Assembly: GCA_963703315.1 (NCBI GenBank)
Contig: OY969811.1
Location: 1,056,001 to 1,120,000 of the forward strand
Direction: 5' to 3'
DNA: 64,000 bases
DNA from: an uncultured cyanobacterium
GTDB taxonomy: Bacteria; Cyanobacteriota; Cyanobacteriia; Pseudanabaenales; Pseudanabaenaceae
The position numbers and the translations under genes were made by a program. Under the pieces are notes generated by a model. That model worked only from the letters and a program-made list of their open reading frames with translations. It did not search any database and had not been told where the DNA came from. Positions 1-39,021 of the stretch are shown one piece after another; positions within the stretch are counted from its first letter, which is position 1; every line of letters begins with the position of its first letter.

Positions 1-1660
1 CCTTAGCAACCTTATTAGTTTGATTCTTGGCATCACTAGATTCTTTTTCAGCCTCGTCTTTCTTATATTCCAAATAGACAGAATAATTTCCGGGATATAA
101 GCGGACTTCACCTTCTGGCTCAAAGGAAAAGACCATATCAACGGTGCGATCTAGAAAATAGCGATCGTGGGAAACTACAATTACACAGCCGTTAAATTCT
201 TCGAGATATTCTTCTAAAACAGCAAGAGTCTGCACATCAAGATCATTAGTCGGTTCATCGAGGATCAAGACATTTGGAGCCGCCATCAAAACTTTGAGCA
301 GGAATAAGCGCCGCTTTTCACCACCAGATAGTTTATTGATCGGTGCATACTGCGTATTACCGGGGAAGAGAAATCGCTCTAACATTTGCGAAGCGGTAAT
401 GATGCTGCCATCAGAAGTTTTGACCAGTTCAGCAACATCCTTGAGATAGTCAATTACCCGTTGATTGCCATGCTCAGCAAGATCATCAGAATGTTGATCG
501 AAGTAGCCAAAATGAATCGTCGTGCCAATTTCGACAGTGCCTTCGTCGGGCTGTAAACGTCCCGTAACAATATTCATCAGCGTGGACTTACCCGCACCGT
601 TGCTGCCGATAATGCCGATGCGATCTTCAGGCGTGAAGTTATAGGAGAAATCTTTGATCAGGGTGCGATCGCCGTAGGATTTACCAATGCGATCGAGTTC
701 CACCACTTTTTTGCCAATGCGTCGCCCTGCGGTGGTGATATCGACTTTGGCATTGGCTTGCTTAAATTCAGTGGCTTGCAAAGCGTGGGCGCGATCAATA
801 CGAGCTTTTTGCTTAGTACTCCGCGCCTTTGGTCCTTTTTTGAGCCATTCCAATTCGCGCCGCAATAGTCCTGCGTGTTTGCGCTGGGTACTGAGGGATG
901 ACTCTTCCGCCTCAGCTTTTTTCTCTAGATAGTAGGAATAATTGCCTGAATAGGAATACAAATCACCACGATCAATTTCGATAATGCGATTGGTGACGCG
1001 ATCTAGAAAATAGCGATCGTGGGTAATTAGCAATAATGCGCCACGATAGCGATTGAGATAGCTTTGCAACCATTCCACTGAGAGGGCATCAAGATGGTTA
1101 GTCGGCTCATCCATTAACAAAACATCGGGTGATGATAACAAGGCTGAGGCGATCGCAATCCGCTTACGGTAGCCACCTGATAGACTGCCAACTTTGGCTT
1201 CGAGGTCATCAATTCCTAACTTAGTTAAGACAATTTTGGCATTGGTTTCCAAATCCCAAGCCCCCGTCTGATCCATGCGCTCAGATACTCGCGATAACTG
1301 CTCTAGCAATCGATCCATATCGCCATGCCCATGAGTTAACTTATCGGAAATTTCTTCATATTCCTTGACTAGAGACATTTGTTCGCCACTATCGGCAAAT
1401 ACCTGCTCTAAGACCGTATTTTCTTCATTCAGGTCAGGCTGCTGTGGCAAATAGATGATTTTGGCACTGGAATTTACCCACAGTTCACCGCCATCGCTAT
1501 GTTCCAATCCTGCGATCATTTTCAATAAAGTGGATTTTCCCGATCCATTTGTACCGATCAGTCCCACTTTGTCGCCTTCATCAAGGCTAAAACTGGCATC
1601 CTTGAGGATTTCTTTAATGCCAAAATCTTTGCGGAGCGATCGCAATGTAAAAAGTGCCAT
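1..1660 (-). CDS. ABC-F family ATP-binding protein (Uup-like), 3' end outside window
   Basis: Manual translation from ATG at 1660: MALFTLRSLRKDFGIKEIL...GTNGSGKST (Walker A), LSGGYRKR, LLMDEPTNHLD; second cassette GSNGAGKST, LSGGEKRR, LILDEPTNDLD. Confidence 0.9.
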   Translation of the reverse strand, partial: MALFTLRSLRKDFGIKEILKDASFSLDEGDKVGLIGTNGSGKSTLLKMIAGLEHSDGGELWVNSSAKIIYLPQQPDLNEENTVLEQVFADSGEQMSLVKEYEEISDKLTHGHGDMDRLLEQLSRVSERMDQTGAWDLETNAKIVLTKLGIDDLEAKVGSLSGGYRKRIAIASALLSSPDVLLMDEPTNHLDALSVEWLQSYLNRYRGALLLITHDRYFLDRVTNRIIEIDRGDLYSYSGNYSYYLEKKAEAEESSLSTQRKHAGLLRRELEWLKKGPKARSTKQKARIDRAHALQATEFKQANAKVDITTAGRRIGKKVVELDRIGKSYGDRTLIKDFSYNFTPEDRIGIIGSNGAGKSTLMNIVTGRLQPDEGTVEIGTTIHFGYFDQHSDDLAEHGNQRVIDYLKDVAELVKTSDGSIITASQMLERFLFPGNTQYAPINKLSGGEKRRLFLLKVLMAAPNVLILDEPTNDLDVQTLAVLEEYLEEFNGCVIVVSHDRYFLDRTVDMVFSFEPEGEVRLYPGNYSVYLEYKKDEAEKESSDAKNQTNKVAK

Positions 1661-1878
1661 GCAGTGCCACTGAACCTATGTAAATCTATATCATTTCTAT
1701 GATTTCTAGTTTAATCGCGATCGAACTAATTATGAGGGTTTTTCCTCAGGCAATGGTTTTTCAAATTTTGTCCTACCTTGCCATAGCTCTCACCATTTCA
1801 TCCTTAAATCGGCGAAAATACCAGAGTATATCAATTTACTGAAGATTGGTATGAGTGTAACTCAGGTAGCTTGGCGAT

Positions 1879-2316
1879 TTAGTCCATTTTCTTTTTAGCT
1901 GCTGTTGATGGATATCGGTTATTTTCGATGAGTATTTGGCGCTCTAAAATACGATCTGCATCATTAAAATCAAGAATTCTTGCGGTAACTTCGCCGATGT
2001 CTGTAGTTGGTTGAATTATCGCTCCATCTAGTTGAAAATGTTCTCTCCATGAGTCTCGGCGAGGGTTGAAGAATCTGACTAGTTCTCCGTTTCGCCAATT
2101 AATTGAGCCTAGATCTGTGCCTTTTTGCAGGTTACAGAATAGGCAAGCATAGCAAAGATTTTCGGCTGTCGAGTCACCGCCATGTTTTACACTAATGATG
2201 TGGTCAACTTGGCAAGATGGCGTATTTTCTTCTGCAATCAGGCAATACTCACATGAATAATCTGCACGTTGTGCAACTAAGCGCCGCAACTCAGCCCTAA
2301 TGTAAGATCGAGGCAT
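1879..2316 (-). CDS. HNH endonuclease
   Basis: CEYC...VDHII...HGG...NLCYACLFCN zinc-binding HNH signature. Confidence 0.85.
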   Translation of the reverse strand: MPRSYIRAELRRLVAQRADYSCEYCLIAEENTPSCQVDHIISVKHGGDSTAENLCYACLFCNLQKGTDLGSINWRNGELVRFFNPRRDSWREHFQLDGAIIQPTTDIGEVTARILDFNDADRILERQILIENNRYPSTAAKKKMD

Positions 2317-2578
2317 TTTCTTTAATTCCAGTGTCGATATATTTGTAGGCTTTAGCTTTAGCGAGTCTGAGGATATGTTCTAATACTAAATATTTCTCTA
2401 ATTCTCTTTTATCTTCTTTTGTAAGTTCATTGTTTTTAGCACCGTGAACTAAATCCTCTAGGCGCTCTTGTGCGGCTTCAGAAAGATGGAAGTCGATTAC
2501 GCTCTGGGGAGTTGTGCCAGATGCAATGAAGTCAACAATTTCATCGTAAACTTTGATGGTTTTAGTGGCTGTGTTCAT
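2297..2578 (-). CDS. Small helical protein, putative antitoxin partner of the HNH gene
   Basis: 93-aa ORF overlapping the HNH start; RLEDL...ELTKEDKRELEKY pattern typical of HNH-linked partners. Confidence 0.55.
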   Translation of the reverse strand: MNTATKTIKVYDEIVDFIASGTTPQSVIDFHLSEAAQERLEDLVHGAKNNELTKEDKRELEKYLVLEHILRLAKAKAYKYIDTGIKENASILH

Positions 2579-2652
2579 AGCTAGGTTCTGATTATGATCC
2601 TTGTGGCGATCTGATTATATCATCAGAGCTTTTGGTAATCATTTGCTGTAAT

Positions 2653-2868
2653 TCATGCGTACATCAACCGTCCTTTGGGTGTGGGGATGATTCTTCCTAA
2701 CATTTTTGCTGTTTCTATCCATTCTTGAATAATGATCTCGGCGTTGGCTACGGCTTCAGCATAGCTTTGTCCATCTGCCATGCAACCTGCAAGTTCAGGA
2801 ATTTCAACGATGAACGCATCATCTGATTCACTCCAATAAACAATTAGTTCGTATTTAATTGGTGTCAT
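2653..2868 (-). CDS. HicB family antitoxin
   Basis: YWSESDDAFIVEIPELAGCMADGQSYAEAVANAE...GRIIPTP HicB motif. Confidence 0.85.
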   Translation of the reverse strand: MTPIKYELIVYWSESDDAFIVEIPELAGCMADGQSYAEAVANAEIIIQEWIETAKMLGRIIPTPKGRLMYA

Positions 2869-3268
2869 TTTCTTTCTGTGGTTCTTGGCTTATTATTTGT
2901 TGAATTTCTTGGCAAATTTTTTCTAGCAAAGGAGCATCTGAAGCAACTACATTATCTTCAATGCGATCGTGTTTGTGATGGGGAAATGTTGATAGATTTA
3001 GCTTTTGATGGTGAGGAGCATTGTCATAGCGAAAAATTAGATCTCCTTCTTTACTCATGTATTGATAGGTATACTTGCCTCTATCAATGGATATTTCTAC
3101 ATCAACAAATTCTCGGATATGCAGTAATGAGCCATCATTAAAATAGATATTGCCTCTAATGAAGCCGAGTGTATCTGTACGGGTTTCTGTCTCAAGTTCA
3201 AATCTTTGAGTAATTGCAAGATTGGAAAGTACATTTCTGATTTCTGCAAAATAATTATCAATCAACAA
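2855..3268 (-). CDS. DUF6516/TumE-like toxin family protein
   Basis: YTYQY...LIFRYDNAPHH...TFPHHKH motif. Confidence 0.75.
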   Translation of the reverse strand: MLIDNYFAEIRNVLSNLAITQRFELETETRTDTLGFIRGNIYFNDGSLLHIREFVDVEISIDRGKYTYQYMSKEGDLIFRYDNAPHHQKLNLSTFPHHKHDRIEDNVVASDAPLLEKICQEIQQIISQEPQKENDTN

Positions 3269-3548
3269 ATTCGATCTCCTTGATGATTGCTTGTTTTTGC
3301 TGTAATTTCTCTAACATCCAAGCTTCGCCTAGCCATTCATCAAAATCTAGGCTATGTTGTAATTGATCGTTGGTGAAAAGGTTAATAAAATTTTCGGTTG
3401 ACCAATGATATTGGGTTTCAAACTGGGTTAGTTTTTGGTGTGTGGTTTGTATTGCTGCTTCAATGCTTTGCAACCTTTTAGCAAGGTCACTTTCGATCAT
3501 TTCTTTGATAGATTCTGGATGACTAGATCTTAATTTCAGTACATTCAT
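3258..3548 (-). CDS. Putative antitoxin partner of the TumE-like gene
   Basis: LTQFETQYHWSTENF...LDFDEW motif; overlaps the downstream toxin; likely start ATG 3548 (MNVLKL) rather than 3593. Confidence 0.65.
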   Translation of the reverse strand: MNVLKLRSSHPESIKEMIESDLAKRLQSIEAAIQTTHQKLTQFETQYHWSTENFINLFTNDQLQHSLDFDEWLGEAWMLEKLQQKQAIIKEIEFVD

Positions 3549-3646
3549 ATTTTTTAGCCTAATCCTATGTCCTAAAATAGCATCAACCAACAAAACTCAA
3601 AAAATTTACATTTTCCTTTTACCCTTTTCCTTTTTCCTTGATCGCC

Positions 3647-3868
3647 CTAGGCAGCAACTAATTGTCTTTCTTGGATAGGGTGATGGTATAAAACCATTAA
3701 CTGTCTTTCTGTTAGGGTTTCGATCGCATAGGCTCTTCCATTGAGGTCGCTAAATTCGACTTCAAAGACTTTAGGTTCGTAAACTTCTACAATTGTGCCA
3801 ACTTGTCCTCGATATAAATGGCAATTGGGGACATCTTCTAAGAGTGCGACTACATCCAATAATTTCAT
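3647..3868 (-). CDS. DUF4926 domain protein
   Basis: MKLLDVVALLEDVP...GQVGTIVEVY...FEVEFSD...GRAYA; likely start ATG 3868. Confidence 0.8.
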   Translation of the reverse strand: MKLLDVVALLEDVPNCHLYRGQVGTIVEVYEPKVFEVEFSDLNGRAYAIETLTERQLMVLYHHPIQERQLVAA

Positions 3869-3887
3869 AATAGAATCTTTTTTTCTG

Positions 3888-4142
3888 TTAGTAGGCATCT
3901 TTACGATGACTGACACTTAGCAATAATACAATTAGCTCTCTGTCTTTAATTTCGTAGATAATGCGATAGTCTCCAACTCTGACACGATAGGTATTGTCGT
4001 AGCCTTTAAGCTTTTTAACTCCGTTCGGACGCGGATCGTCGGCTAGAGAGCGCAATGTCACAATCAAGCGATCGCGTTCAATTTTTGAGATGTTATCTAG
4101 CTGCTTTTGGGCTGGTTTAGGGATAACGATCTGATAGCTCAT
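3888..4142 (-). CDS. RelE/ParE family toxin
   Basis: DPRPNGVKKLKG...YRVRVGDYRIIYEI...VSHRKDAY. Confidence 0.9.
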   Translation of the reverse strand: MSYQIVIPKPAQKQLDNISKIERDRLIVTLRSLADDPRPNGVKKLKGYDNTYRVRVGDYRIIYEIKDRELIVLLLSVSHRKDAY

Positions 4143-4348
4143 GCTTGATTTGCCTCGTATTGATCGAGGGTTAGATAATCACCTGAGAGATAGGCTGTTT
4201 GGGAAGAGAGAATATTTTCTTTTTCTTCTGAGGTTATTTCCTCTTCTACATAGCGAGATTTGAGAAACAATACAAAGTCAAGGGTTTCTGCTAATAGGGA
4301 TTCAGAAATATTTTCGACTTCTTGAATTAACTTTTCTTTGATAGTCAT
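4139..4348 (-). CDS. DUF2281-like antitoxin
   Basis: KEKLIQEVENISESLLAETLDFVLFLK; 4-nt overlap with the RelE gene. Confidence 0.7.
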   Translation of the reverse strand: MTIKEKLIQEVENISESLLAETLDFVLFLKSRYVEEEITSEEKENILSSQTAYLSGDYLTLDQYEANQA

Positions 4349-4378
4349 TGTTTTTTGCGATCGGTTTGTCTTTTTATT

Positions 4379-7300
4379 TTACATTGCCTCACGGATCGGC
4401 TGAAGCCAACTGATCGCATTTTGAGTTGTCGGATGCTCTGTGCCAAGTTTTTGTTCGTAAATTTGGATGGCGCGTTGGATGGATTGTAGGGCTTGGGGAT
4501 GACGTTGGGTATTGTGATAGAGGACGGCTAAGTTGAGTAGACTGGTGGCGACAGAGGGATGGTCTGCTCCTAGTTGTCGTTCATTGATTTCGAGCGATCG
4601 CAGATAGAGAGGTTCGGCTTCGCTGTACTTCCCTTGCGATTCGTAAAGTGATGCGAGATTGTTGAGACTGGTGGCGACAGAGGGATGGTCTGCTCCTAGT
4701 TGGCGTTCCCTGATCGAGAGCGATCGCAGATAGAGAGGTTCGGCTTCGCTGTACTTTCCTTGCGATTCGTAAAGATTTGCGAGATTGTTGAGACTGGAAG
4801 CGAGATCGGGATGGTCTGCTCCTAGTTTTTGTTCTCCGATTTCGAGTGATCGCACATAGAGTGGTTCACTTTCGCTGTACTTCCCTTGTACTTGGTAAAG
4901 TAATGCTAGATTGTTGAGACCAGCGGCAACAGAGGGATGGTCTGCTCCTAGTTGGCATTCCCATATCGAGAGCGATCGCACATACAGTGGTTCAGCTTCG
5001 CTGTACTTCCCTTGTACTCGGTAAAGTGATGCCAGATTGTTGAGAGTTTGGGCGACATCGGGATGGTCTGCTCCTAATTTTCGTTCCCCGATTTCGAGTG
5101 ATTGCAGATAGAGGGGTTTGGCTTCGCTGTATTTCCCTTGCGATTCGTAAAGATTTGCGAGATTGTTGAGACTGATGGCAACATCGGGATGGTCTGCTCC
5201 TAGTTGCCGTTCCCTAATCGAGAGCGATCGCACATAGAGTGGTTCGGCTTCGCTGTATTTCCCTTGCGATTCGTAAAATAATGCAAGATTGTTGAGACTG
5301 CTGGCAACAGAGGGATGTTCCGATCCTAGTTGGCGATCGTTGATCGAGAGCGATCGCACTAAAAGTGGCTCGGCTTCACTGTACCTCCCTTGCGCTCGAT
5401 AAAGTTGTGCAAGATTGTTTAGACTGTTGGCGAAATCGGGATTGTCTTCTCCTAGTTGGCGCTCGTTGATCGAGAGTGATCGCAGATAGAGAGGTTCGGC
5501 TTCGCTGTACTTCCCTTGCGCTTGATAAAGTTCTGCAAGATTGTTTAGACTGTTGGCGACATCGGGATTGTCTTCTCCCAGTTGGCGTTCCCTGATTTCG
5601 AGCGATCGCAGATAGAGAGGTTCAGCTTCGCTGTAATTCCCTTGCGCTCGATAAAGTTGTGCAAGACCGTTGATACTGTTGGCGACATCGGGATTGTCTT
5701 CTCCTAGTTGGCGTTCCCTGATTTCGAGCGATCGCAGATGGAGAGGTTCGGCTTCGCTGTATTTCCCTTGCGATTGGTAGACCACAGCTAAACTATTCAC
5801 GCTATTTGCGACATCAATATGGTTTTTACCAAGTCGCTCCTCTTTAATGGCGATCGCTCGAAGAAATATTTGTTCTGCTTCAACATACATTCCTTGTAGT
5901 CGATATAGTCTTGCTAATGAATGTAAATAATCTGACAGGGTGAGAGAACTACCTTTAGTCGTAGCAATCTTAACGGCTTCTTTGGCAGTGATAATTCCAT
6001 CTTGATATTTATTCAATTTATCAAAAACTTGAGAGATTGTATGGAGATAACCCGCCAAAATCATACTGTTCTCAGGCAAAGCCACCCGCGCTTGCTCGAT
6101 CGCCCTCTGATAACCCTTAATCGCCTCACCAAAATAATTTTGAGCAGCCCCAGATTCACCCTTAGCCAAAGCCGCCTTAGCCCGATCATGGGTACTTTGC
6201 GCTTGACGATAGGTTGCCTCAAAAATTGGTGCTTGGTTTAACCGAAAACTACCACCAATGAGATTATTTTTTTGCAGTTTATAGGCACTGACTAAAGCAG
6301 GATTTGTAACGGATTTGAGCCGATCTTCCACAAATTTTTGAGCCGATGCAAAATGTGGGCGGAAGGGTTGCCATGCTGTCACCAGATCCCAAGCCGCAAA
6401 CGCAGGAATCTCATTAGCGCGATCGCTCAGTCCCCGTAACCATGCATCTTGCCAACCCTCGCGATCAAATCCATCCCATTGCATAGCAAAAAACTCATGA
6501 ATTAACCGATGCAAGCGATAGGTTTTACCCTCATCCACACTTTGAATCAGAGTCCTTGTCCGCAAATCAATTTCGGCTTTAGTCAGATTCCGAATTGGCA
6601 CAAAAGCTGGTTGATTCGGCTCCGCAGGTTTCCCTAAAAATGGTAATAGCCCCCTCACCAACTGCCCCAACGAATCCCAAAACCTTTGCCACCAACTTTT
6701 GCGAACAATCGGCGCTGCTGACGGTTGCGGATAGGAACGCACCACCGCCTCCACCAACTCCCAAGGCAAATTGATCGGTTCAAACAAACTCAAAACCCGC
6801 CCTAATTGCTGTGCATCAGGTGACAACTGTTGCCAACTCACCGTAATTACCGCCTTCAAACCCTGCTTAATGTTTTTACTAGCATCAATATTTTCAGGAG
6901 CTTCGGCAATTGGTTCCAATACTTCACTTGCCAGCCCTTCTTGTTCCAATTTAGCGATCGCCTTCGGCAAAGTATCTTGGGTAATCTTCAACCAATTCCC
7001 CACCAAAGTCAGCGCTAAGGGCAAACATCCCAAGCGATCGCAAAGACTTCTGGCAAGCTCAGGATGATCAAGCACCGTTTGCTGATTTGGTTCCGCCCAT
7101 TTTGTCAATACCTGCACCGCCGCTTCAGTCTCCAATTCCTGAATTTCATGCACTGCCAAATTACCGCGCAACTGCGATCGCGAAGTCAGCACAAACCGAA
7201 ACGGACAGCGATCGCCTGAAATCTTTGGTAAATAGGGCGCAACTTGCTCATGATAATTCGTCACATCATCAATAACGATCAGCGCCAATCGCTCCGCACC

Positions 7301-7882
7301 ACAAAATTTTTGCCATGCTTGCCAACCTTCTTCTACCTGTGCTTCTAAAGTTCTCAAATACCGTAAATCGCGATCTTCAGAAAACCGCGACTGCATAAAA
7401 TCCCTGAGATCTTCTCCAAAATGCGCTACATCAAAAATCCCAACCCCACCCACATAATCATTCAGATGCAATTTGCCATACTGCCGCACCAGTTCACTTT
7501 TACCTACACCTGCCATGCCCACAATTAGCACAGTCGGTAAATGTCCCACTTGCTCAGATTGCGCTTGCAACAACCCATGTAGTTTATCTAAGTCAGCCTC
7601 ACGCCCCACAAAATTGCCATTGCGATCAATCTCGCGATCCCCTAGATTGTTATAAAAGCTTTGGTCATGGGTGAACTTTTCCGATTGAAGATCATTTGTG
7701 CGATCGCCGACAATCAAAGTGCCAATATTTACAGTACTTCCAGATTGAGGAACCACCCCAATTTTGTCAGCAATTTTATTCGGCTCATGATGAATCTCTT
7801 GGGAGATATTCGCATTGACATCACCACCAGCCGTGACATTTTCAAGCGCTGTTTGCTTGTTTTGCGGATCTTGTTCAGCCAT
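4379..7882 (-). CDS. NLR-like STAND NTPase (NB-ARC) with C-terminal 42-aa TPR array and short N-terminal motifs
   Basis: FVGRE, Walker A GMAGVGKS, Walker B LIVIDDV, TSR sensor, LGCLPLAL; about 11 kinesin-light-chain-type TPRs (HPDVAxSLNNLAxLYxxQGKYSEAEPLY). Confidence 0.92.
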   Translation of the reverse strand: MAEQDPQNKQTALENVTAGGDVNANISQEIHHEPNKIADKIGVVPQSGSTVNIGTLIVGDRTNDLQSEKFTHDQSFYNNLGDREIDRNGNFVGREADLDKLHGLLQAQSEQVGHLPTVLIVGMAGVGKSELVRQYGKLHLNDYVGGVGIFDVAHFGEDLRDFMQSRFSEDRDLRYLRTLEAQVEEGWQAWQKFCGAERLALIVIDDVTNYHEQVAPYLPKISGDRCPFRFVLTSRSQLRGNLAVHEIQELETEAAVQVLTKWAEPNQQTVLDHPELARSLCDRLGCLPLALTLVGNWLKITQDTLPKAIAKLEQEGLASEVLEPIAEAPENIDASKNIKQGLKAVITVSWQQLSPDAQQLGRVLSLFEPINLPWELVEAVVRSYPQPSAAPIVRKSWWQRFWDSLGQLVRGLLPFLGKPAEPNQPAFVPIRNLTKAEIDLRTRTLIQSVDEGKTYRLHRLIHEFFAMQWDGFDREGWQDAWLRGLSDRANEIPAFAAWDLVTAWQPFRPHFASAQKFVEDRLKSVTNPALVSAYKLQKNNLIGGSFRLNQAPIFEATYRQAQSTHDRAKAALAKGESGAAQNYFGEAIKGYQRAIEQARVALPENSMILAGYLHTISQVFDKLNKYQDGIITAKEAVKIATTKGSSLTLSDYLHSLARLYRLQGMYVEAEQIFLRAIAIKEERLGKNHIDVANSVNSLAVVYQSQGKYSEAEPLHLRSLEIRERQLGEDNPDVANSINGLAQLYRAQGNYSEAEPLYLRSLEIRERQLGEDNPDVANSLNNLAELYQAQGKYSEAEPLYLRSLSINERQLGEDNPDFANSLNNLAQLYRAQGRYSEAEPLLVRSLSINDRQLGSEHPSVASSLNNLALFYESQGKYSEAEPLYVRSLSIRERQLGADHPDVAISLNNLANLYESQGKYSEAKPLYLQSLEIGERKLGADHPDVAQTLNNLASLYRVQGKYSEAEPLYVRSLSIWECQLGADHPSVAAGLNNLALLYQVQGKYSESEPLYVRSLEIGEQKLGADHPDLASSLNNLANLYESQGKYSEAEPLYLRSLSIRERQLGADHPSVATSLNNLASLYESQGKYSEAEPLYLRSLEINERQLGADHPSVATSLLNLAVLYHNTQRHPQALQSIQRAIQIYEQKLGTEHPTTQNAISWLQPIREAM
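4520..5800. repeat. Intragenic tandem array of about 10 near-identical 126-bp units (TPR-coding)
   Basis: gag(c/t)gat(c/t)gca recurs at 126-bp spacing from about 4594 to 5727. Confidence 0.9.
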
Positions 7883-7897
7883 GCTAAATTCCCTTTA

Positions 7898-8853
7898 TAG
7901 CTATAGCCAGCTAGGTTAGGACATAAAATAGAAAGAAACTGAGACATCTGAGCAACAACAATGCCAAAACCATATAGTTACGATTTGCGTCAAAAGGTAA
8001 TGCAAGCAATCGAAATGGATGGACTGAAGAAAAATGAAGCCAGTCAATTGTTCGGGATTAGTCGAAACACAATCAACTTGTGGTTTGAGAGACGGGAAGA
8101 AACAGGAGATATAACCGTAAAGGCAAGAGCATCGTCTAGTCAGAAGCCCAAAATTAGCGACTGGGAAAAGTTTCGAGAATTTGTCAAAGAGCATGAGGAT
8201 AAGACCCAAGCAGAGATGGCAGAATTATGGGGAAATATCAGTCAAAGGTCTATATCACGAGCGTTAAAACAGATAGGATTTACCCGTAAAAAAAAACTTA
8301 TGGTTATCGGGAACGAGATGAAGAAAAACGTAATGAGTTTCGCACAGCCTTAGGCGATCCAAAAGCATCCCACTTAGTTTACGTTGATGAATCAGGGATG
8401 GATGAACGTGATAATTATGGATATGGATGGTCTGCAAAAGGTGAGCGAATTCATGGACTCAAAGCAGGTCGTCGTCAGGGACGTATTAATATGATTGCGG
8501 GATATCGAGATGGACAACTAATTGCCCCCTTTACAATTAAAGGCTGTTGCAACCGCAACGTATTTGAAATCTGGTTAGAATCTTGCTTGATTCCAACTCT
8601 CAAGGCTGGGCAATGGGTAATTATCGATAATGCTACTTTCCATCATGGTGGACGCATTCAGGATTTGATAGCAGCAGCAGGATGTAAGGTCGTCTATTTA
8701 CCTCCATATTCTCCAGACCTTAATCGCATTGAGAAATGTTGGGCTTGGCTCAAATCTCGTATTCGTAAACTCCTACGCAATTCAGCTAATCTTCATGATG
8801 CTATTGACTCCGTTCTTGCCCTTGCTGCGTCCTAACTTGACTGGCTATAGCTA
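7898..8853 (+). mobile_element. IS630-family insertion sequence
   Basis: Terminal IRs TAGCTATAGCCAGCTAGGTTAGGAC and (reverse complement) TAGCTATAGCCAGTCAAGTTAGGAC; TA duplication at 7896-97 and 8854-55. Confidence 0.93.
7961..8835 (+). CDS. IS630 transposase, OrfA+OrfB joined by -1 frameshift
   Basis: OrfA HTH (YSYDLRQKV); A9 run at 8288-8296 joins to TYGYRERDEE...VYVDESG; DDE residues in VDESG, IIDNA and LPPYSPDLNRIE. Confidence 0.9.
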
Positions 8854-8868
8854 TATCTTGATTGGATA

Positions 8869-9180
8869 TCAACTAGCAGAATATTTTGCGCGGCTTTGCT
8901 CATATAAACTCGCCACAGAAATATGCGTTAAATAAAACTCTTCACCTTCCGAATCGCGCAAAGCATCCACATAAGCATCAATCCCACGCGGTTTTGGTAA
9001 CTCATCGACATCGGCAAGATGTAAAACCAACGCCGATCGCATCAGCTTTGTCGTTTCTTCCAAAGTCTCACCCGTAGCAATACAACCCGCCACATCAGGT
9101 GAATATGCTGAAAACCCAGTGTCACTTTTTTCTAAGACGATGAGATATTGGTCAATCATTTCGCGTACTTTTGTGGTCAT
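8869..9180 (-). CDS. HicB family antitoxin
   Basis: YLIVLEKSDTGFSAYSPDVAGCIATGETLEE. Confidence 0.8.
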   Translation of the reverse strand: MTTKVREMIDQYLIVLEKSDTGFSAYSPDVAGCIATGETLEETTKLMRSALVLHLADVDELPKPRGIDAYVDALRDSEGEEFYLTHISVASLYEQSRAKYSAS

Positions 9181-9401
9181 GATTCCCTTAAAAGTTCTTC
9201 TACCGTCAAACCAATATCGCGAGCAATCTGACGTAACAAAGTCGGTGAAATATCCCGTCCCTTATGACATGGAACCGTAGTACCTCGTCCATCCGCATGA
9301 CGAAACTGCTTATGCGATCCTCTTTGTCTCACTTCCACAAAACCAAGATTTTCTAGCAATCGAATAACTTGCTGCGGTTTAAGGACAGGAATATTACCCA
9401 T
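9177..9401 (-). CDS. HicA family toxin
   Basis: LENLGFVEVRQRGSHKQFRH...TTVPCH...LLRQIARDIGL. Confidence 0.9.
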   Translation of the reverse strand: MGNIPVLKPQQVIRLLENLGFVEVRQRGSHKQFRHADGRGTTVPCHKGRDISPTLLRQIARDIGLTVEELLRES

Positions 9402-9421
9402 AATTTTATTTGCCTATTGAT

Positions 9422-9631
9422 TTAGGCGATCGCAATTAACTGAGTGCCGACAAACTCTGACTGCGGTGGAATCACGTCTTCTTCTAAAAGCATCGCAATT
9501 ACTTCTTGCAAATTCTCACGCAACTCATCTAGAGTCTCTCCTTGAGAATGTGCGCCCACAAATGAAGGGACATAACCCACATATAGGTTAGTGTCTACAT
9601 CTTTTTCAATAACAGCAGTAAATACCTTCAT
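9422..9631 (-). CDS. HicB family antitoxin
   Basis: FTAVIEKD...YVGYVP...GAHSQGETLDELRENLQEVI. Confidence 0.88.
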   Translation of the reverse strand: MKVFTAVIEKDVDTNLYVGYVPSFVGAHSQGETLDELRENLQEVIAMLLEEDVIPPQSEFVGTQLIAIA

Positions 9632-9654
9632 AAAATCCTCTGTAAAAAACTGAA

Positions 9655-10074
9655 TTACATATTGAACGTTGCAATATCCGCCTTGCCACCACTTTGCACC
9701 ACAATACCAATTTTTTCGGCTAACTTGTTGGGATTCTGAGATTTTGGCTGGCTCAGTTGTAATTGCAAAGCCTCAACCTTAGCCGCTAGCTCTTTATTGC
9801 TAGATAAAAGCGATCGCACCTCATCCAACAACTTCACCACATCAGGATCATCAGCGATCACCTCTACATCAATCACCGCCTGTCCAGCATCAAAAGCTTC
9901 ACCCGCACTAATCGCTTTTACAGTCTGCGTATTTGGAGCCTTACGACTGAGAACAGACCAAAGCGATCTCGCCAGCTTCACCGTCTCATCGGTAATATTT
10001 TCGCCAACCTTAGTGAGAGAACCAGTGCCAACAATTACCAACAAACCCACAATTAAAGAAGAAACTGGCTCCAT
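9655..10074 (-). CDS. Small helical Bell-like putative effector with C-terminal putative amyloid motif
   Basis: Hydrophobic N-terminal helix MEPVSSLIVGLLVIVG, helical body, and tail PNKLAEKIGIVVQSGGKADIATFNM matching NLR residues 34-58. Confidence 0.7.
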   Translation of the reverse strand: MEPVSSLIVGLLVIVGTGSLTKVGENITDETVKLARSLWSVLSRKAPNTQTVKAISAGEAFDAGQAVIDVEVIADDPDVVKLLDEVRSLLSSNKELAAKVEALQLQLSQPKSQNPNKLAEKIGIVVQSGGKADIATFNM

Positions 10075-10111
10075 ATTTACACCAATAATTTAGGAATACT
10101 TTGATTTTAAC

Positions 10112-10546
10112 TCACACATTACTACTAGAAACTAAAGCGATCGCCTCTTGAATAATGCGATCGCGATCGACCATTTCCCCTAACTCCACCGATTCATAAT
10201 GTCCACCGAACGCCTCACCCGCAGCAGCATCTAACGCAATGTCATAGGCATCTTCCAAAGCCTCGCGTAGTTCTGAAGGTTCGCAATAATTTCCTTTAGC
10301 CTTACGCCGTTGGTTAGTACGCTGAATTTCTCGTACCGAATTTTTAATTGAAAGATCCCCCGATCTTGTAGTGCGATTTTCGGCACGTTGTTTGATCAGA
10401 TGGAGTAGCAAGATTTTGGCAAAGCTATATATCTTATTCAGCTTGTCATCCTTGCTCATCTCTGTCATCTCTTCCACTATCAGCAAGGCATCGGAGATAT
10501 TGCCACTGAGCAAAAATGCCTTTAGTTCTAACAACTCTTCCATCAC
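10112..10546 (-). CDS. DUF29 family protein
   Basis: MEELLELK...EEMTEMSKDDK...ILLLHLIK...TTRS.DLSI. Confidence 0.75.
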   Translation of the reverse strand: MMEELLELKAFLLSGNISDALLIVEEMTEMSKDDKLNKIYSFAKILLLHLIKQRAENRTTRSGDLSIKNSVREIQRTNQRRKAKGNYCEPSELREALEDAYDIALDAAAGEAFGGHYESVELGEMVDRDRIIQEAIALVSSSNV

Positions 10547-10699
10547 CTAAGCCTTCTGTGTTAAATCACCCAAATCCATATCACCTGTTACCTTGACATT
10601 CTTCAGCATCGTCTGCTCGACCGAGCCGCTAACCGATAGAGCTGTTTGCTTCATTGATTTTGCTCGAAGGTTTACGCCATCAATATCACTAGCTATCAC
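10547..10699 (-). pseudogene. Unannotated short frame encoding a second putative amyloid-motif tail (effector remnant or stand-alone peptide)
   Basis: GTG at 10699 reads VIASDIDGVNLRAKSMKQTALSVSGSVEQTMLKNVKVTGDMDLGDLTQKA*; resembles NLR residues 9-29. Confidence 0.55.
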
Positions 10700-10726
10700 T
10701 GGTACAATTTTAGGCGCAATTGTAGA

Positions 10727-11323
10727 TTAAACCCGTCGCCGTAGCCAGAAAAGCGAAATTAAGATCAGTCCTGTGAGCAACCCGTAGATTGCACCAATTA
10801 CAAATGTCAAAAAATATCCCAGATGCTTATCAAGCAGAAAAATACCTACTTGCAAAGTGAGATACCAACTAATTGTCGTGCCAACCATCCACCAGTCCGC
10901 TAGTTGAGAATAGGGCTTGAGAATGATCGATTGGGCTATGCCTGTGGTCAAACCACGTAAACAGCTATAGATCGTTAGAAATTCAACCGCATCACCATAG
11001 GTAAGTACTAGCTGCCAACTTGCCCAAGAACTCAGCGTACCGCCCAAAGTGCCGCCGATCCATGTTGCCCATAGCCATCCCATACCGAAGATGTAGTTTC
11101 GGATGACTAACCATTGAGCAAGGGCGATCGCCATACTCATCACAGCAAAAGTTAGCAAAATATTCAGATTGCCTTGCACATAGTCAACCACAAAAAAGCT
11201 GATGATGCCGCCTATAGAATAACTAATGGCATTTGCCACAATCCACAGGGGCAGAAAATTCCAGTGTGGTTTTCCTATGGCTAGCTCTTTTGTCTTAAAC
11301 TTTACTCTAAGTCGTTCCAACAA
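10727..11323 (-). CDS. Multi-pass membrane protein of unknown function
   Basis: Repeated hydrophobic helices with AQWLV/AQSII and WxWAT motifs; probable TTG start at 11323 with GAGG upstream, avoiding overlap with the divergent gene. Confidence 0.65.
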   Translation of the reverse strand: MLERLRVKFKTKELAIGKPHWNFLPLWIVANAISYSIGGIISFFVVDYVQGNLNILLTFAVMSMAIALAQWLVIRNYIFGMGWLWATWIGGTLGGTLSSWASWQLVLTYGDAVEFLTIYSCLRGLTTGIAQSIILKPYSQLADWWMVGTTISWYLTLQVGIFLLDKHLGYFLTFVIGAIYGLLTGLILISLFWLRRRV

Positions 11324-11339
11324 AATTTGAGCCTCATTA

Positions 11340-12356
11340 ATGAGAAGACTATACTTTTTACTACCAGGAACCACAAATAAATTTGCCTGTGGGGGCTTAT
11401 GGGCAGAGCTAAAAACCCTAAAACTAGTGCAGCAAGTTTGCCCTGCGGAGGTAGTCACCTATCGCCAACGCGAACCAGAGCATTTATGGCTAGATGATCT
11501 TCTAGACTCCAATAATAGCCGTCATCATTTAGATGATGCGATTTTTGTAATGAGTTGGGGCTTTGATGTTCCTAAGTTGGCGGCGAAGTTAAAGTCTTTC
11601 AATACTATTTATCACGCGCATAGCGCCGAGTATGGATTTCATCTCCCTGCCACTGTGCCAATTATTACAGTCAGTCGTAATACTCTTGGTTATTGGGGAC
11701 AGCGATCGCCACACTCCTTACTGTACTATTTGCCCAATGAGATTTCTGATAAGTTCCAAAACTGGCAACGCGATCGCAATATCGATGTCTTAGTACAGGC
11801 AAGAAAATCCTCTAGCTATTTAATCAATCAATTGATTCCAGCTTTGCAAAAAAAATGTCGCGTGGAAGTAATCGATTACTATGTTGAGGATTTAGAATCA
11901 CTATTCAATCGTGCTAAAGTCTATCTCTACGACTCAGCCGAATATTGGGCAGTGCAGGGAGTTACGGAAGGATTTGGACTACAACCGATGGAAGCGCTTG
12001 CCTGTGGCTGTCAAGTTTTTTCTAGTGTCAATCATGGCTTATCGGACTACTTAGACCCTGCGTTTAACTGCTATAAAATCGCAGGTTATTCTCAAGAATT
12101 TGATTTGCAACGGATTCTTAAAGCAATCCAGAGCGATCGCCCGTTGTCTCTATCAACATCCGTCTTATCAGAATATCGTGCGGAAAATATTATTCAGCGC
12201 TTGCAGATAATTTTAGAAGAGGTAAATGAATTTTTTGATCATAAGCAATGCTATCGCGGTAATATTCCTGACCTAGATTATTGGCAAATCACCAAACTGC
12301 GATCGCAAAGATTATTGGCTAAACTCAAACAGCGATTACAACGCAAACCTGTGTAA
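11340..12356 (+). CDS. Glycosyltransferase (GT-B, group 1-like)
   Basis: EGFGLQPMEALACGC motif. Confidence 0.8.
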   Translation: MRRLYFLLPGTTNKFACGGLWAELKTLKLVQQVCPAEVVTYRQREPEHLWLDDLLDSNNSRHHLDDAIFVMSWGFDVPKLAAKLKSFNTIYHAHSAEYGFHLPATVPIITVSRNTLGYWGQRSPHSLLYYLPNEISDKFQNWQRDRNIDVLVQARKSSSYLINQLIPALQKKCRVEVIDYYVEDLESLFNRAKVYLYDSAEYWAVQGVTEGFGLQPMEALACGCQVFSSVNHGLSDYLDPAFNCYKIAGYSQEFDLQRILKAIQSDRPLSLSTSVLSEYRAENIIQRLQIILEEVNEFFDHKQCYRGNIPDLDYWQITKLRSQRLLAKLKQRLQRKPV

Positions 12357-36588: not shown

Positions 36589-39021
36589 ATGTGGATCAAT
36601 CTCAAAAAAAGAATTTGGAAATGCAAAGATTTCTTTGTCATTATTCCTATAACAACGGGGATTTTGCTAGGAATACGCTTTTTGGGGCTATTGCAACCCC
36701 TAGAACTATCGATATATGACTTATTCTTTCAGTGGCGACCGAGAGAACCCATAGACGAAAGGATCGTGATTGTTGGGATCGATGAAGCTGACATCCAAAA
36801 TTTTGGTTATCCCATTAACGATAGCACCCTCACCAAACTCCTCAACGCCATCAAGCAACAGCAACCTAGAGTGATTGGTCTAGATATCTACCGCGATTTA
36901 CCAGTACCTCAAACCTATGGTTCTGAATATCAAGAATTAGTCAAACTATTTGAATCGACCCCAAACCTCATCGGCATTCGGAAAGTGGTTGTTAATCGAG
37001 AAGGTAGTGGTGTTGCCGCATCCCCAATCCTTGAAAAACTCAATCAAGTCGCTGCTAATGATCTTCTCCCTGATCGCGATGGTAAGATTCGCCGTGTGCT
37101 GCTATCGCTTAAAGACCAGCAAGGTAAAACCGTTGTCAGTTTGAGTGCTGCCCTAGCGCTCCAGTATCTCAAAAAAGAAAATATTAGTGTTGAAGTTATT
37201 GATCCGCAACTTCAGAAATATAAGTTAGGGAAAGCAATCTTCTCGCCGATAGCAGAAAATGATGGCGGCTATGTCCATCAAAGCTTGGGGGGATATCAAA
37301 CATTAGCGAATTTTCGCAATTTTCAGGATAGCTTTCGTTCTGTCTCTATAACTCAAATATTAAAAGGAGAGATTTCACGGGATATCTTTCGCGATCGCAT
37401 CGTTTTAATTGGAATTACTGCTGAAAGTAATACTGATTACTTTATCACTCCCTACAACAGCAATGTCTTGGGAAGTTCTTTGCCAGTTACAAGTGGCGTA
37501 AAACTTCATGCGAATATTGCTAGTCAATTGATTGCCAATGCCATTGATGATCGACCAGTCTTGCAAGTCTGGTCAAAAACTGTGGAGTGCCTATGGATTT
37601 CACTTTGGGCGATTATCAGTGGCTGGTTATGTTGGAATCGTCGCCACATCAGACCAATCACTCAATCCAAGTTTACTTTCCGTATCCCTTGGCTCACTCT
37701 ATCGATCGCAGGTTTAGGCATCGGTCTATTTACCACCAGCTATGGCGTATTCTTGCTGGGTTGGTGGATTCCTGTCGTACCGTCATTGGTTGCTCTGTTT
37801 GGTTCAGCGATCGCGATAACAGGCTATACAGCCCTCAGTGCTAACGAAGCTCGTAGACGCGCCTTGCTTTCGGTTATTCCTGACTTGATGTTCAATGTTA
37901 GTGGTGATGGCATTTATCTAGGTCAGATTAACTATGAGAGTAATATCAAGGTAGCTTTTCCTGACTTGGAGAATATTGGCAAGCATCTTTCCCAAATCCT
38001 ACCGATTGAAATCAGTGATCGCCATCTTTTTCATATTCGCCAAGCTCTAAGCACAGGAAAGCTCCAAATTTATGAACAGAAAATATGGGTTGACAGTAAT
38101 TATCAATATGAAGAAGTTCGTATTGTCGTTAGTGGAGTGAATGAAGTGCTGTTTATGATCCGCAATATTAGCGATCGCAAACAAGCAGAACTAGTTATCC
38201 AAAACAAAAATATGGAATTGGCTCATACCTTAGATGCTCTCATAACTACTCAAAAACAACTTATCGAATCAGAGAAGTATGCCGCCCTCGGTAGTATGGT
38301 TGCGGGTATTGCCCATGAAGTGAATACACCTGTTGGCAATAGTCTCATGGCAGCTTCCATTCTAGAAAATGCTACCGTTAAATTTAACGAAGCTTTCCAT
38401 CGCGGCGAACTCAAAAAATCTAGCTTACAAGCATATTTAGACAAAGCTAAAAGTAGTAGCGAAATTCTCTTAGAGAACTTACAACGTGCCGCCGAACTGA
38501 TCCAAAACTTTAAGCAAGTTGCTGTCGATCAATCTAACCTAGAACAGCGTAGCTTTCAAGTCAAAGATTATATCGAAAGGATTTTGGTGAGTTTAGACCC
38601 ACAAATCAAACATACGCCTCACCAAGTCATTGTCCGAGGTGATCAGGCGATCGCGATGCGGAGTTATGCAGGTGCATTTTCGCAAATTGTCACCAATCTA
38701 GTAATGAATTCCCTAACTCATGCCTATCATGGATTAGATAAGATTGGGAAGCTCCAGTTTGAACTGACTCAGCAAGATGACAAAGTAATCATCATCTATA
38801 CTGATGATGGCAAAGGGATTCCCGAAGAGAGTTTACCTAGAATTTTTGATCCTTTCTTTACAACAGCCAGAGATAGAGGTGGTAGTGGTTTAGGTTTATA
38901 TATTATCTATAACCTTGTAACTCAGAATCTTAAGGGAAGCATTCTTTGCAAAAGTGAAGTTGGTATAGGGACAAAGTTTATCATCACCTTGCCACTTAAT
39001 TTAGAGTTATCTCAAAGCTAA
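36589..39021 (+). CDS. CHASE2-TM-PAS sensor histidine kinase
   Basis: DERIVIVGIDE, PRVIGLDIYRD, DRIVLIG; three TM helices; H-box AHEVNTP; DDGKG, FDPFFTT, GSGLGL. Confidence 0.93.
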   Translation: MWINLKKRIWKCKDFFVIIPITTGILLGIRFLGLLQPLELSIYDLFFQWRPREPIDERIVIVGIDEADIQNFGYPINDSTLTKLLNAIKQQQPRVIGLDIYRDLPVPQTYGSEYQELVKLFESTPNLIGIRKVVVNREGSGVAASPILEKLNQVAANDLLPDRDGKIRRVLLSLKDQQGKTVVSLSAALALQYLKKENISVEVIDPQLQKYKLGKAIFSPIAENDGGYVHQSLGGYQTLANFRNFQDSFRSVSITQILKGEISRDIFRDRIVLIGITAESNTDYFITPYNSNVLGSSLPVTSGVKLHANIASQLIANAIDDRPVLQVWSKTVECLWISLWAIISGWLCWNRRHIRPITQSKFTFRIPWLTLSIAGLGIGLFTTSYGVFLLGWWIPVVPSLVALFGSAIAITGYTALSANEARRRALLSVIPDLMFNVSGDGIYLGQINYESNIKVAFPDLENIGKHLSQILPIEISDRHLFHIRQALSTGKLQIYEQKIWVDSNYQYEEVRIVVSGVNEVLFMIRNISDRKQAELVIQNKNMELAHTLDALITTQKQLIESEKYAALGSMVAGIAHEVNTPVGNSLMAASILENATVKFNEAFHRGELKKSSLQAYLDKAKSSSEILLENLQRAAELIQNFKQVAVDQSNLEQRSFQVKDYIERILVSLDPQIKHTPHQVIVRGDQAIAMRSYAGAFSQIVTNLVMNSLTHAYHGLDKIGKLQFELTQQDDKVIIIYTDDGKGIPEESLPRIFDPFFTTARDRGGSGLGLYIIYNLVTQNLKGSILCKSEVGIGTKFIITLPLNLELSQS

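Follow-up and report, generated by a model that had tools for sequence, protein, structure and literature searches.

This locus raises the question of whether a short, hidden frame close to an NLR gene encodes a motif-only peptide that cooperates with the receptor, or is what has been left of a larger effector gene. The window, i.e. the whole stretch of 64,000 nucleotides that was analysed, contains on the minus strand a stop-to-stop frame (10726..10547) of 59 open codons. Its re-translation, STIAPKIVPVIASDIDGVNLRAKSMKQTALSVSGSVEQTMLKNVKVTGDMDLGDLTQKA followed by a stop, agrees exactly with the peptide given in a preliminary description of this DNA, and a GTG at 10699 would open an ORF of 50 aa within it. 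Going from high to low coordinates, the minus strand carries the genes of the membrane protein, the peptide frame, DUF29, Bell2, the HicB-like protein, HicA and HicB and, beyond an IS630 element on the plus strand, the NLR. The features of the region are the following:

10727..11323, minus strand: conserved membrane-protein gene (198 aa), unrelated to the remnant, whose TAA stop abuts the remnant
10547..10726, minus strand: Bell1 3' remnant, about 57 codons and the stop retained, about 100 codons of the Bell head absent
about 10640-10708 (repeat 1) and 10550-10621 (repeat 2), minus strand: BASS4-type double tail of the Bell1 remnant, as judged from the published BASS4 set
10112..10546, minus strand: DUF29 gene (Pfam PF01724, E 1.7e-05), with its start directly 3' of the remnant stop
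9655..10074, minus strand: Bell2, an intact Bell-type effector of 139 aa with a BASS5-type C-terminal tail, NKLAEKIGIVVQSGGKADIATFNM
8869..9631, minus strand: block of HicB-like (9422-9631), HicA (9177-9401) and HicB (8869-9180) genes, assigned by Pfam, between Bell2 and the NLR
7961..8835, plus strand: IS630-family transposase in two ORFs (Pfam HTH_Tnp_IS630 and DDE_3), between the Hic genes and the NLR
4379..7882, minus strand: NLR of 1167 aa, NB-ARC + TPR, assigned by Pfam
7799-7861 (residues 8-28) and 7709-7783 (residues 34-58), minus strand: N-terminal motifs of the NLR, BASS4-like and BASS5-like respectively, as judged from the sequence
2..1660, minus strand: ABC-F ATPase gene, on the far side of the island
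1661..10726, no strand: island of about 9 kb between the membrane-protein gene and the ABC-F ATPase gene, with the Bell1 remnant as its right-hand edge

The NLR starts with MAEQDPQNKQTALENVTAGGDVNANISQEIHHEPNKIADKIGVVPQSGSTVNIGTLIV, residues 10-28 being QTALENVTAGGDVNANISQ, and the Pfam domains NB-ARC (E 1.7e-08, residues 95-317) and then TPR_12 (E 1.5e-185) identify it as a STAND NTPase of the NB-ARC + TPR type. The IS630-family transposase (7961-8835) is split into an HTH ORF and a DDE ORF, by either a frameshift or a programmed shift, and parts the Hic genes from the NLR start in the window; loci L016 and L063 are devoid of IS630. Pfam and NCBIfam returned no family above cut-off for Bell2, an intact Bell1 orthologue, the remnant or the membrane protein. 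The profile HMM of the Bell authors is absent from both collections. Rfam gave no match over positions 9000-12000.

As the preliminary description had proposed a tBLASTn-type search for a full helical domain upstream of the tail, the peptide was searched in six frames against 60 relatives. Fifteen strong matches (E <= 5e-10) were found in 14 genomes of the same genus, with 60-86% identity across nearly the whole peptide. Twelve of the 15 are the ends of open frames of 163-186 aa, and the window peptide shows 82-86% amino acid identity to such C-termini. Intact Bell1 orthologues, as ORFs of 155-174 aa, are thus present at 12 of the 15 matching places in the 14 congeneric genomes. A wider census of genome contigs showed Bell1 to be intact at 18 of 26 species loci, a sample that overlaps the 15 places in 14 genomes and is not independent of it. 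The Bell1 orthologues start with MEP or MDP, with the acidic residue at position 2; a hydrophobic helix at the N-terminus is followed by a helical central part and a tail of the type ...VQVMASDIEGVNLRAKSMKQTAPSVSGSVEQTMLKNVKVTGDIDLGDLTQEA. In the alignment, their heads are nearly identical to, or close paralogues of, the head of Bell2 in the window.

Bell effectors were defined by a length of about 120-140 aa, a hydrophobic helix at the N-terminus and an acidic residue in position 2 or 3. Both the helix and the acidic residue occur in the Bell1 orthologues (155-174 aa) and in Bell2 (139 aa, N-terminus MEPVSSLIVGLLVIVG). The window frame has nothing of the head, its alignment being confined to the last ~57 residues. 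An AF2 model of an intact Bell1 orthologue, of low confidence (mean pLDDT 58), showed helices at residues 3-116 and an unstructured tail at 117-160, and a PDB sequence search with the Bell alignment returned nothing below E 0.1. Since the tail is preceded at the orthologous loci by a complete, presumably helical Bell head, the peptide is a headless remnant, one of the two alternatives that the preliminary description had put forward. The frame is very probably a pseudogene fragment, namely the 3' end of the gene for a Bell-domain cell-death effector, Bell1, with a double BASS4 repeat as its tail.

The position of the remnant directly behind the membrane-protein gene was then considered. The two frames are in phase with a single TAA in between, an arrangement in which the peptide could represent a C-terminal extension of the membrane protein produced by read-through. 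However, the membrane protein has 48 homologues of 135-213 aa and not one of these matches exceeds 213 aa; the 14 that were aligned all share the same C-terminus, stop where the membrane protein stops and have no tail. A related strain carries one additional nucleotide at 10725, which breaks the phase between the membrane-protein gene and the remnant, and the sequence past the TAA is orthologous to another gene, Bell1. Read-through or fusion with the upstream membrane protein was ruled out by the homologue ends and by the insertion at 10725, and its likelihood is negligible; the common frame of the two genes is a coincidence.

The Bell1 remnant was also delimited by blastn against 10 relatives. 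The homology to Bell1-DUF29 sets in between window positions 10696 and 10728, and for six of these relatives at 10725-10728, i.e. at the stop codon of the membrane-protein gene. The junction is not an assembly artefact, as contigs of three runs span it, the number of differences being 0 for X1, 4 for X2 and 23, plus one inserted base, for X3; one junction-bridging contig is about 2.7% divergent.

All five relatives examined have the ABC-F gene directly next to the membrane-protein gene, and in the window 9 kb separate them; therefore, about 9 kb has been placed between the two genes. This island contains an HNH gene, several genes of toxin-antitoxin type, the NLR, IS630, the Hic genes, Bell2, DUF29 and the Bell1 tail. 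The HNH-type gene lies at 1879-2316 and the toxin-antitoxin-like small genes at 2297-4348, and a similar HNH gene is found downstream of the NLR in L011, L015 and L020. Among the relatives, Bell1-DUF29-NLR clusters occur in differing genomic contexts, so these clusters move or get reshuffled.

The other alternative of the preliminary description was a stand-alone peptide that acts as amplifier or decoy. The 57 codons of the remnant contain no stop and no frameshift, and possible starts are offered by the GTG at 10699 and by internal ATGs. All these candidate starts were codons in the interior of the ancestral Bell1, the promoter and terminator counts over 9500-11600 are at the level of shuffled sequences, and other headless copies hold stops or are devoid of any start codon, which speaks against such a peptide. 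The remnant does not have the features of an independent small gene, namely a start and a ribosome-binding site of its own and a conserved ORF. Moreover, the window copy alone departs from 13 orthologous tails at five otherwise invariant positions, the P->L of KQTAL among them, and it has three private synonymous changes. The dN/dS ratio was 0.19 for the window against the orthologues and 0.095 among the intact orthologues, and the DUF29 control gave 0.125 and 0.067 respectively. As the ratio doubles in the same way in the adjacent intact DUF29, these values do not establish relaxed selection on the remnant.

In the census, Bell1 was broken or headless at eight of the 26 species loci (Pseudanabaena, Phormidium, Microcystaceae, Dolichospermum, Cuspidothrix, Pleurocapsa), with remnants of 20-96 codons, scattered breakpoints and DUF29 as the next gene in eight of eight. 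Broken copies are seen likewise in L018, with a frameshift, L024, with a deletion of the head and an in-frame TGA, and L025, with an internal deletion and a stop. The loss or breakage of the killer head at eight of 26 species loci suggests that such effectors carry a cost or do not last long. Tail-only ORFs of 35-51 aa have been called in other assemblies, one of them on 50 contigs and one on 24; the one on 50 contigs matches the piece past the in-frame stop of an L024-type remnant. In a Dolichospermum locus (L100, about 3001-3090), an ORF of 32 aa joins the first four head residues, MEPV, directly to BASS4 repeat 2, an internal deletion by which the original start was kept. The Shine-Dalgarno sequence of DUF29 (GAAGG here) falls within the last codons of the Bell1 tail, and a simpler account of the survival of the tail is that it persists because it houses this site.

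These data also bear on whether the remnant is still translated, from the GTG at 10699, from an internal ATG or by re-initiation past the upstream stop, yielding a motif-only peptide that would cap, buffer or seed BASS4 templating. The 59 open codons with their possible starts would allow it, and no terminator-like site is present between the upstream gene and DUF29, which makes co-transcription plausible. The tail-only ORFs called elsewhere and the recurrence of tail remnants beside DUF29 at the eight loci, with repeat 2 well kept, would point the same way. On the other hand, the remnants vary in length (20-59 aa) and in breakpoint, four of them have no start codon and two have in-frame stops. 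The starts in the window are ordinary internal codons of the ancestral Bell1, the private substitutions fall on sites that are invariant in the 13 orthologues, and the linkage to the DUF29 start explains the retention more simply. Continued translation is therefore highly improbable, and the headless remnant of Bell1 is most likely silent at the protein level. More generally, orthologues should be checked before a short open frame beside an immune gene is named a micropeptide.

The kinship between the remnant tail and the NLR was then evaluated. The preliminary description had counted seven identities in a 12-residue core and KQTAL in both the peptide and the NLR, and direct reading of the two sequences gave the same counts. 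The Smith-Waterman score of the peptide against the NLR N-terminus was 36. Among the 131,077 stop-to-stop frames of the genome, the peptide ranked 40th with NLR residues 1-32 as query and 11th with the core (residues 9-29). The comparison with shuffled peptides, which the preliminary description had suggested, returned p values of 0.002 for NLR 1-32, 0.0008 for the core and 0.026 for NLR 1-90. The pairwise similarity of peptide and NLR exceeds chance only marginally, and such statistics by themselves do not decide the matter. Two other proteins of this genome come much closer to NLR 1-32, namely a second NLR with a score of 84 and a CHAT protein with 83, compared with 36 for the peptide. In all 13 orthologous tails the corresponding residues read KQ[TK]AP, and the L of the KQTAL in the window comes from its private P->L substitution, which indicates that the KQTAL common to peptide and NLR is a coincidence.

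A profile was built from the N-termini of 22 NLRs, taken from other genomes only, and searched against all 131,077 frames. The peptide came fourth, behind two NLRs and the CHAT protein, with a full-sequence E of 0.019 and a best domain of 13.1 bits over profile positions 5-25. With family information, the kinship of peptide and NLR appears better supported than as a pair. The reverse profile, made from 13 Bell1 tails, placed no NLR among its top matches in this genome, and only two of 26 NLR N-termini scored above 5,200 shuffles; this profile is narrow, its 13 tails being near-identical.

The assignment to motif families was made by comparing the sequences by eye with the published classes. 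According to the README of the PMC8086366 supplement, class C06 is BASS4 and class C07 is BASS5, and the main text of the same paper reports BASS4 to be frequently present in repeats on the side of the Bell protein. In the supplement, a C06 Bell-side sequence ending in VEQTMLKNVKVTGDIDLGDLSQEG is identical to remnant repeat 2 at 20 of 24 positions, another C06 sequence matches repeat 1, and C06 sequences such as ...LQNVQVGGNLTTGNITQTII resemble the first motif of the NLR. By this comparison the remnant tail has the likeness of the BASS4 family. In the same data, class C07 holds ...KLADKIGAVALPGG... and, on the NLR side, ...NISQEIHHEPNKLADKVGIV..., sequences of BASS5 that the Bell2 tail and NLR residues 34-58 resemble, and a C07 entry from the NLR side spans the same BASS4/BASS5 junction (NISQEIHHEPNKLADK...). 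The Bell2 tail, which shows 48% identity to NLR residues 23-49, and NLR 34-58 thus combine the likeness of BASS5 with the pairing of a Bell C-terminus and an NLR N-terminus.

Judged from these likenesses, the "other motif" of the preliminary description is BASS4, its "first motif" BASS5 and the Bell1 tail a double BASS4. Its main assignments are supported by the data. The NLR carries two different motifs in tandem, BASS4-like at residues ~8-28 and BASS5-like at ~34-58. The peptide tail goes with the first of them, by the NLR-side profile (E 0.019) and the published BASS4 set, and the second is borne by Bell2 (10074..9655), as judged from the match of its tail to NLR 23-49 and from the published BASS5 set. 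The suggestion that such an arrangement may be undescribed was overstated, both motif families having been published and an NLR fragment across the same junction being present in the published BASS5 data. No statement on a BASS4+BASS5 tandem on one NLR was found in the literature consulted; Table S2 of Dyrka et al. 2020 may list such pairs.

The gene order in the relatives provides a further line of evidence. The order Bell1-DUF29-NLR was found at nine loci (L011, L014, L015, L016, L018, where Bell1 is frameshifted, L019, L020, L021 and L023). The N-termini of their NLRs are of the type MTTDPKNQQSALQGNDVGRDLTIGNITQ or MSEQPQVNQTGFQDVSVGGNLTANLDQ, with the pattern Q[ST]x[LF]...GG[ND]...I[TS]Q. 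A truncated NLR with the same N-terminal type is present in L013, and in L061 a Bell protein with the tail NKQTGFDNVKIKGKATIKLNQ adjoins an NLR starting with MTNKQTGLEHVNVGGDADINVSQ. In the relatives, BASS4 therefore occurs both on a Bell C-terminus and on the N-terminus of the neighbouring NLR, at the nine loci with Bell1 intact or frameshifted and in L061. Exceptions are L017, which has no nearby NLR, L022, which ends at a contig end, and L012, whose NLR bears a third motif. By gene order, the tail can be regarded as cognate to the NLR motif at the level of the family.

Locus L012 (7634-11319) comprises an intact Bell1 with BASS4, DUF29, a second Bell with the tail ...SGTNNTQNNTFNL, HicA/HicB and an NLR starting with ...GSGNTQNNTFNF. 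There the NLR pairs with the second Bell by the third motif, and Bell1 is left with no matching NLR motif. In most loci (L011-L020, L078-L103), DUF29 lies directly 3' of the Bell1 stop and ahead of the NLR, and in L014, L016 and L017 it flanks Bell1 on both sides. The term "DUF29" is absent from the main text of bioRxiv 10.1101/2020.01.06.895854.

The similarity of tail and NLR N-terminus might nonetheless be due to chance or composition, the frame then being a dead gene with a motif that had at no time been cognate to the receptor. Such a reading would account for the pairwise rank of only 40 in 131,077, the p of 0.026 against NLR 1-90 and the failure of the reverse profile search, and the island was perhaps assembled from parts, DUF29-Bell units being repeated and shuffled. 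It is difficult to reconcile with the fourth place that the independent NLR-side profile gives to the peptide genome-wide, and with its location 3 kb from the NLR on the same strand. Likewise, L016 shows an intact Bell1 upstream of an orthologous tandem-motif NLR, and the published BASS4 class includes both types of sequence. We consider a chance similarity improbable.

A search with NLR residues 1-50 was carried out to find other receptors of the same type. It returned 15 further NLR-sized frames covering both motifs, distributed over 10 other genomes of 47 plus one more in this genome. Comparison of 12 non-redundant N-termini showed a constant distance between the two motifs, free of indels, and a conserved junction, QEIHHEPNK. 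The neighbours of these NLRs were tallied for 14 of the 16 loci, the window included; the NLRs of the other two are N-terminally extended. A BASS5-tailed Bell is the neighbour at six loci including the window (two of them known from the hit table only), a BASS4-tailed Bell at two (L016 and L061), a headless BASS5 tail of 44 codons at L063 and an unrelated protein of 164 aa at two; at three loci there was no Bell neighbour within the fetched flank. None of the tandem-motif NLR loci searched has both Bell partners intact, and traces of the two are found together only in the window. The proposal of the preliminary description that the operon holds a partner for each motif is thus acceptable in a historical sense, and does not hold for intact partners at any tandem-motif NLR locus looked at.

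In this genome, the BASS5 half of the NLR has an intact local partner in Bell2, and the BASS4 half has no intact Bell partner. The other intact carriers of BASS4-like sequence in the genome are only a second NLR and a distant protein with CHAT and EAD9 domains. The second NLR (L010, 9588-12433, near base 38,800 of the same genome) is of the NB-ARC/TPR type with the same BASS4+BASS5 tandem. The gene preceding it overlaps it and codes for a protein of 164 aa to which Pfam assigns no family; L062 has this pair as well. The CHAT + EAD9 protein of 345 aa (L001, 9231-10268, about 2.69 Mb from the window in the same genome) starts with the BASS5-like LAEKIGINVQGGTVNVQNLNIG and carries the BASS4-like KQSALENVTAGGNINVTIHQ after the CHAT domain, and the gene following it codes for a TPR protein with no NTPase domain. 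A HicB-like/HicA pair is found upstream of tandem-motif NLRs also in L016 and L063. L063 represents a mirror case, in which a headless BASS5 tail (...SQNPNKLAKKIGIVVQSGGKADIATFNM, a 44-codon frame at about 8150-8290) lies upstream of a HicB-like gene, HicA and a tandem-motif NLR.

The constancy of the tandem raises the possibility that the BASS4-like and BASS5-like stretches form one composite module of about 50 residues, e.g. two rungs of a single beta-solenoid seed, instead of two channels. The resemblance of the Bell1 tail would then say nothing about separate wiring. This would agree with the fixed spacing, the lack of indels and the common QEIHHEPNK junction of the 12 non-redundant N-termini, and with most tandem NLRs adjoining only a BASS5-tailed Bell or none at all. 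However, NLRs with the BASS4-like stretch alone exist, beside Bell1, the Bell partners bear one family or the other and never both, and BASS4 and BASS5 have been published as separate families. We regard a composite module as rather unlikely.

Taking the two stretches as two motifs, the fixed BASS4+BASS5 tandem with interchangeable partners can be considered a new variant in a modest sense. A bolder proposal is that the tandem BASS4-then-BASS5 NLR of Pseudanabaena is a two-output switch, served by a BASS4-tailed Bell, a BASS5-tailed Bell or neither. In such a switch, the CHAT+EAD9 protease might be recruited in trans and the tail-only frames beside DUF29 might be kept as caps or buffers of templating. 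This proposal is speculative and we judge it rather unlikely. The loci themselves constitute a natural series of Bell/NLR arrangements in one genus, in which the receptor keeps two published motif families and the effector partners come and go. This series makes it testable whether bacterial amyloid motifs are orthogonal codes, each half of the NLR seeding its own tail.

On the whole, the following mechanism can be proposed for the intact system, which has the gene order Bell1-DUF29-NLR and a single BASS4-like repeat at the NLR N-terminus. With HET-s/NWD2 and Bab/Agp as models, the NLR, once activated, would oligomerise and present its N-terminal motif as an amyloid seed. This seed would template the tail of the Bell effector into the amyloid fold, and the membrane-targeting head would thereby be set free to attack the membrane. 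Here, the Bell1 head (about 100 codons) has been lost at the right-hand edge of the island, which separates two genes of housekeeping type that otherwise adjoin each other. The tail has been left, and with it the ribosome-binding region of DUF29 that it contains, and only the BASS5 route has an intact local effector, Bell2.

In the HET-s/NWD2 system of Podospora anserina, two pseudo-repeats are present on the effector tail and one on the NLR, and templating of the tail activates a membrane-targeting head. That system is fungal and uses another motif family, and HET-s is intact and functional, whereas the copy in the window is decapitated. Fungal NLRs with combined amyloid motifs (PMC9815663) offer a precedent for two motifs on one NLR N-terminus; they are represented by few near-identical sequences, and the passages on them assign no partners. 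In bacteria, the Bab/Agp antiphage system of E. coli (bioRxiv 10.1101/2024.11.07.622273) is described as a Bell-like killer and a sensor that are encoded by adjacent genes, have an amyloid motif in common and act by abortive infection. Its motif is BASS11 and its sensor is different, and its action was shown by experiment, whereas that of the present genes is predicted.

The Bell/NLR pairs described by Dyrka et al. 2020 (bioRxiv 10.1101/2020.01.06.895854) are alike in several respects. Their host is a filamentous cyanobacterium, and the genes of effector and receptor are collinear. The effector is small and helical, begins with a hydrophobic helix and has an acidic second residue, and a motif of about 25 residues at its C-terminus recurs at the N-terminus of an NB-ARC/TPR protein encoded nearby. 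Compared with those pairs, the BASS4 effector is headless here, DUF29 stands between effector and NLR, toxin-antitoxin genes and an IS element part the intact effector from the NLR, and the NLR itself bears two motif families in tandem.
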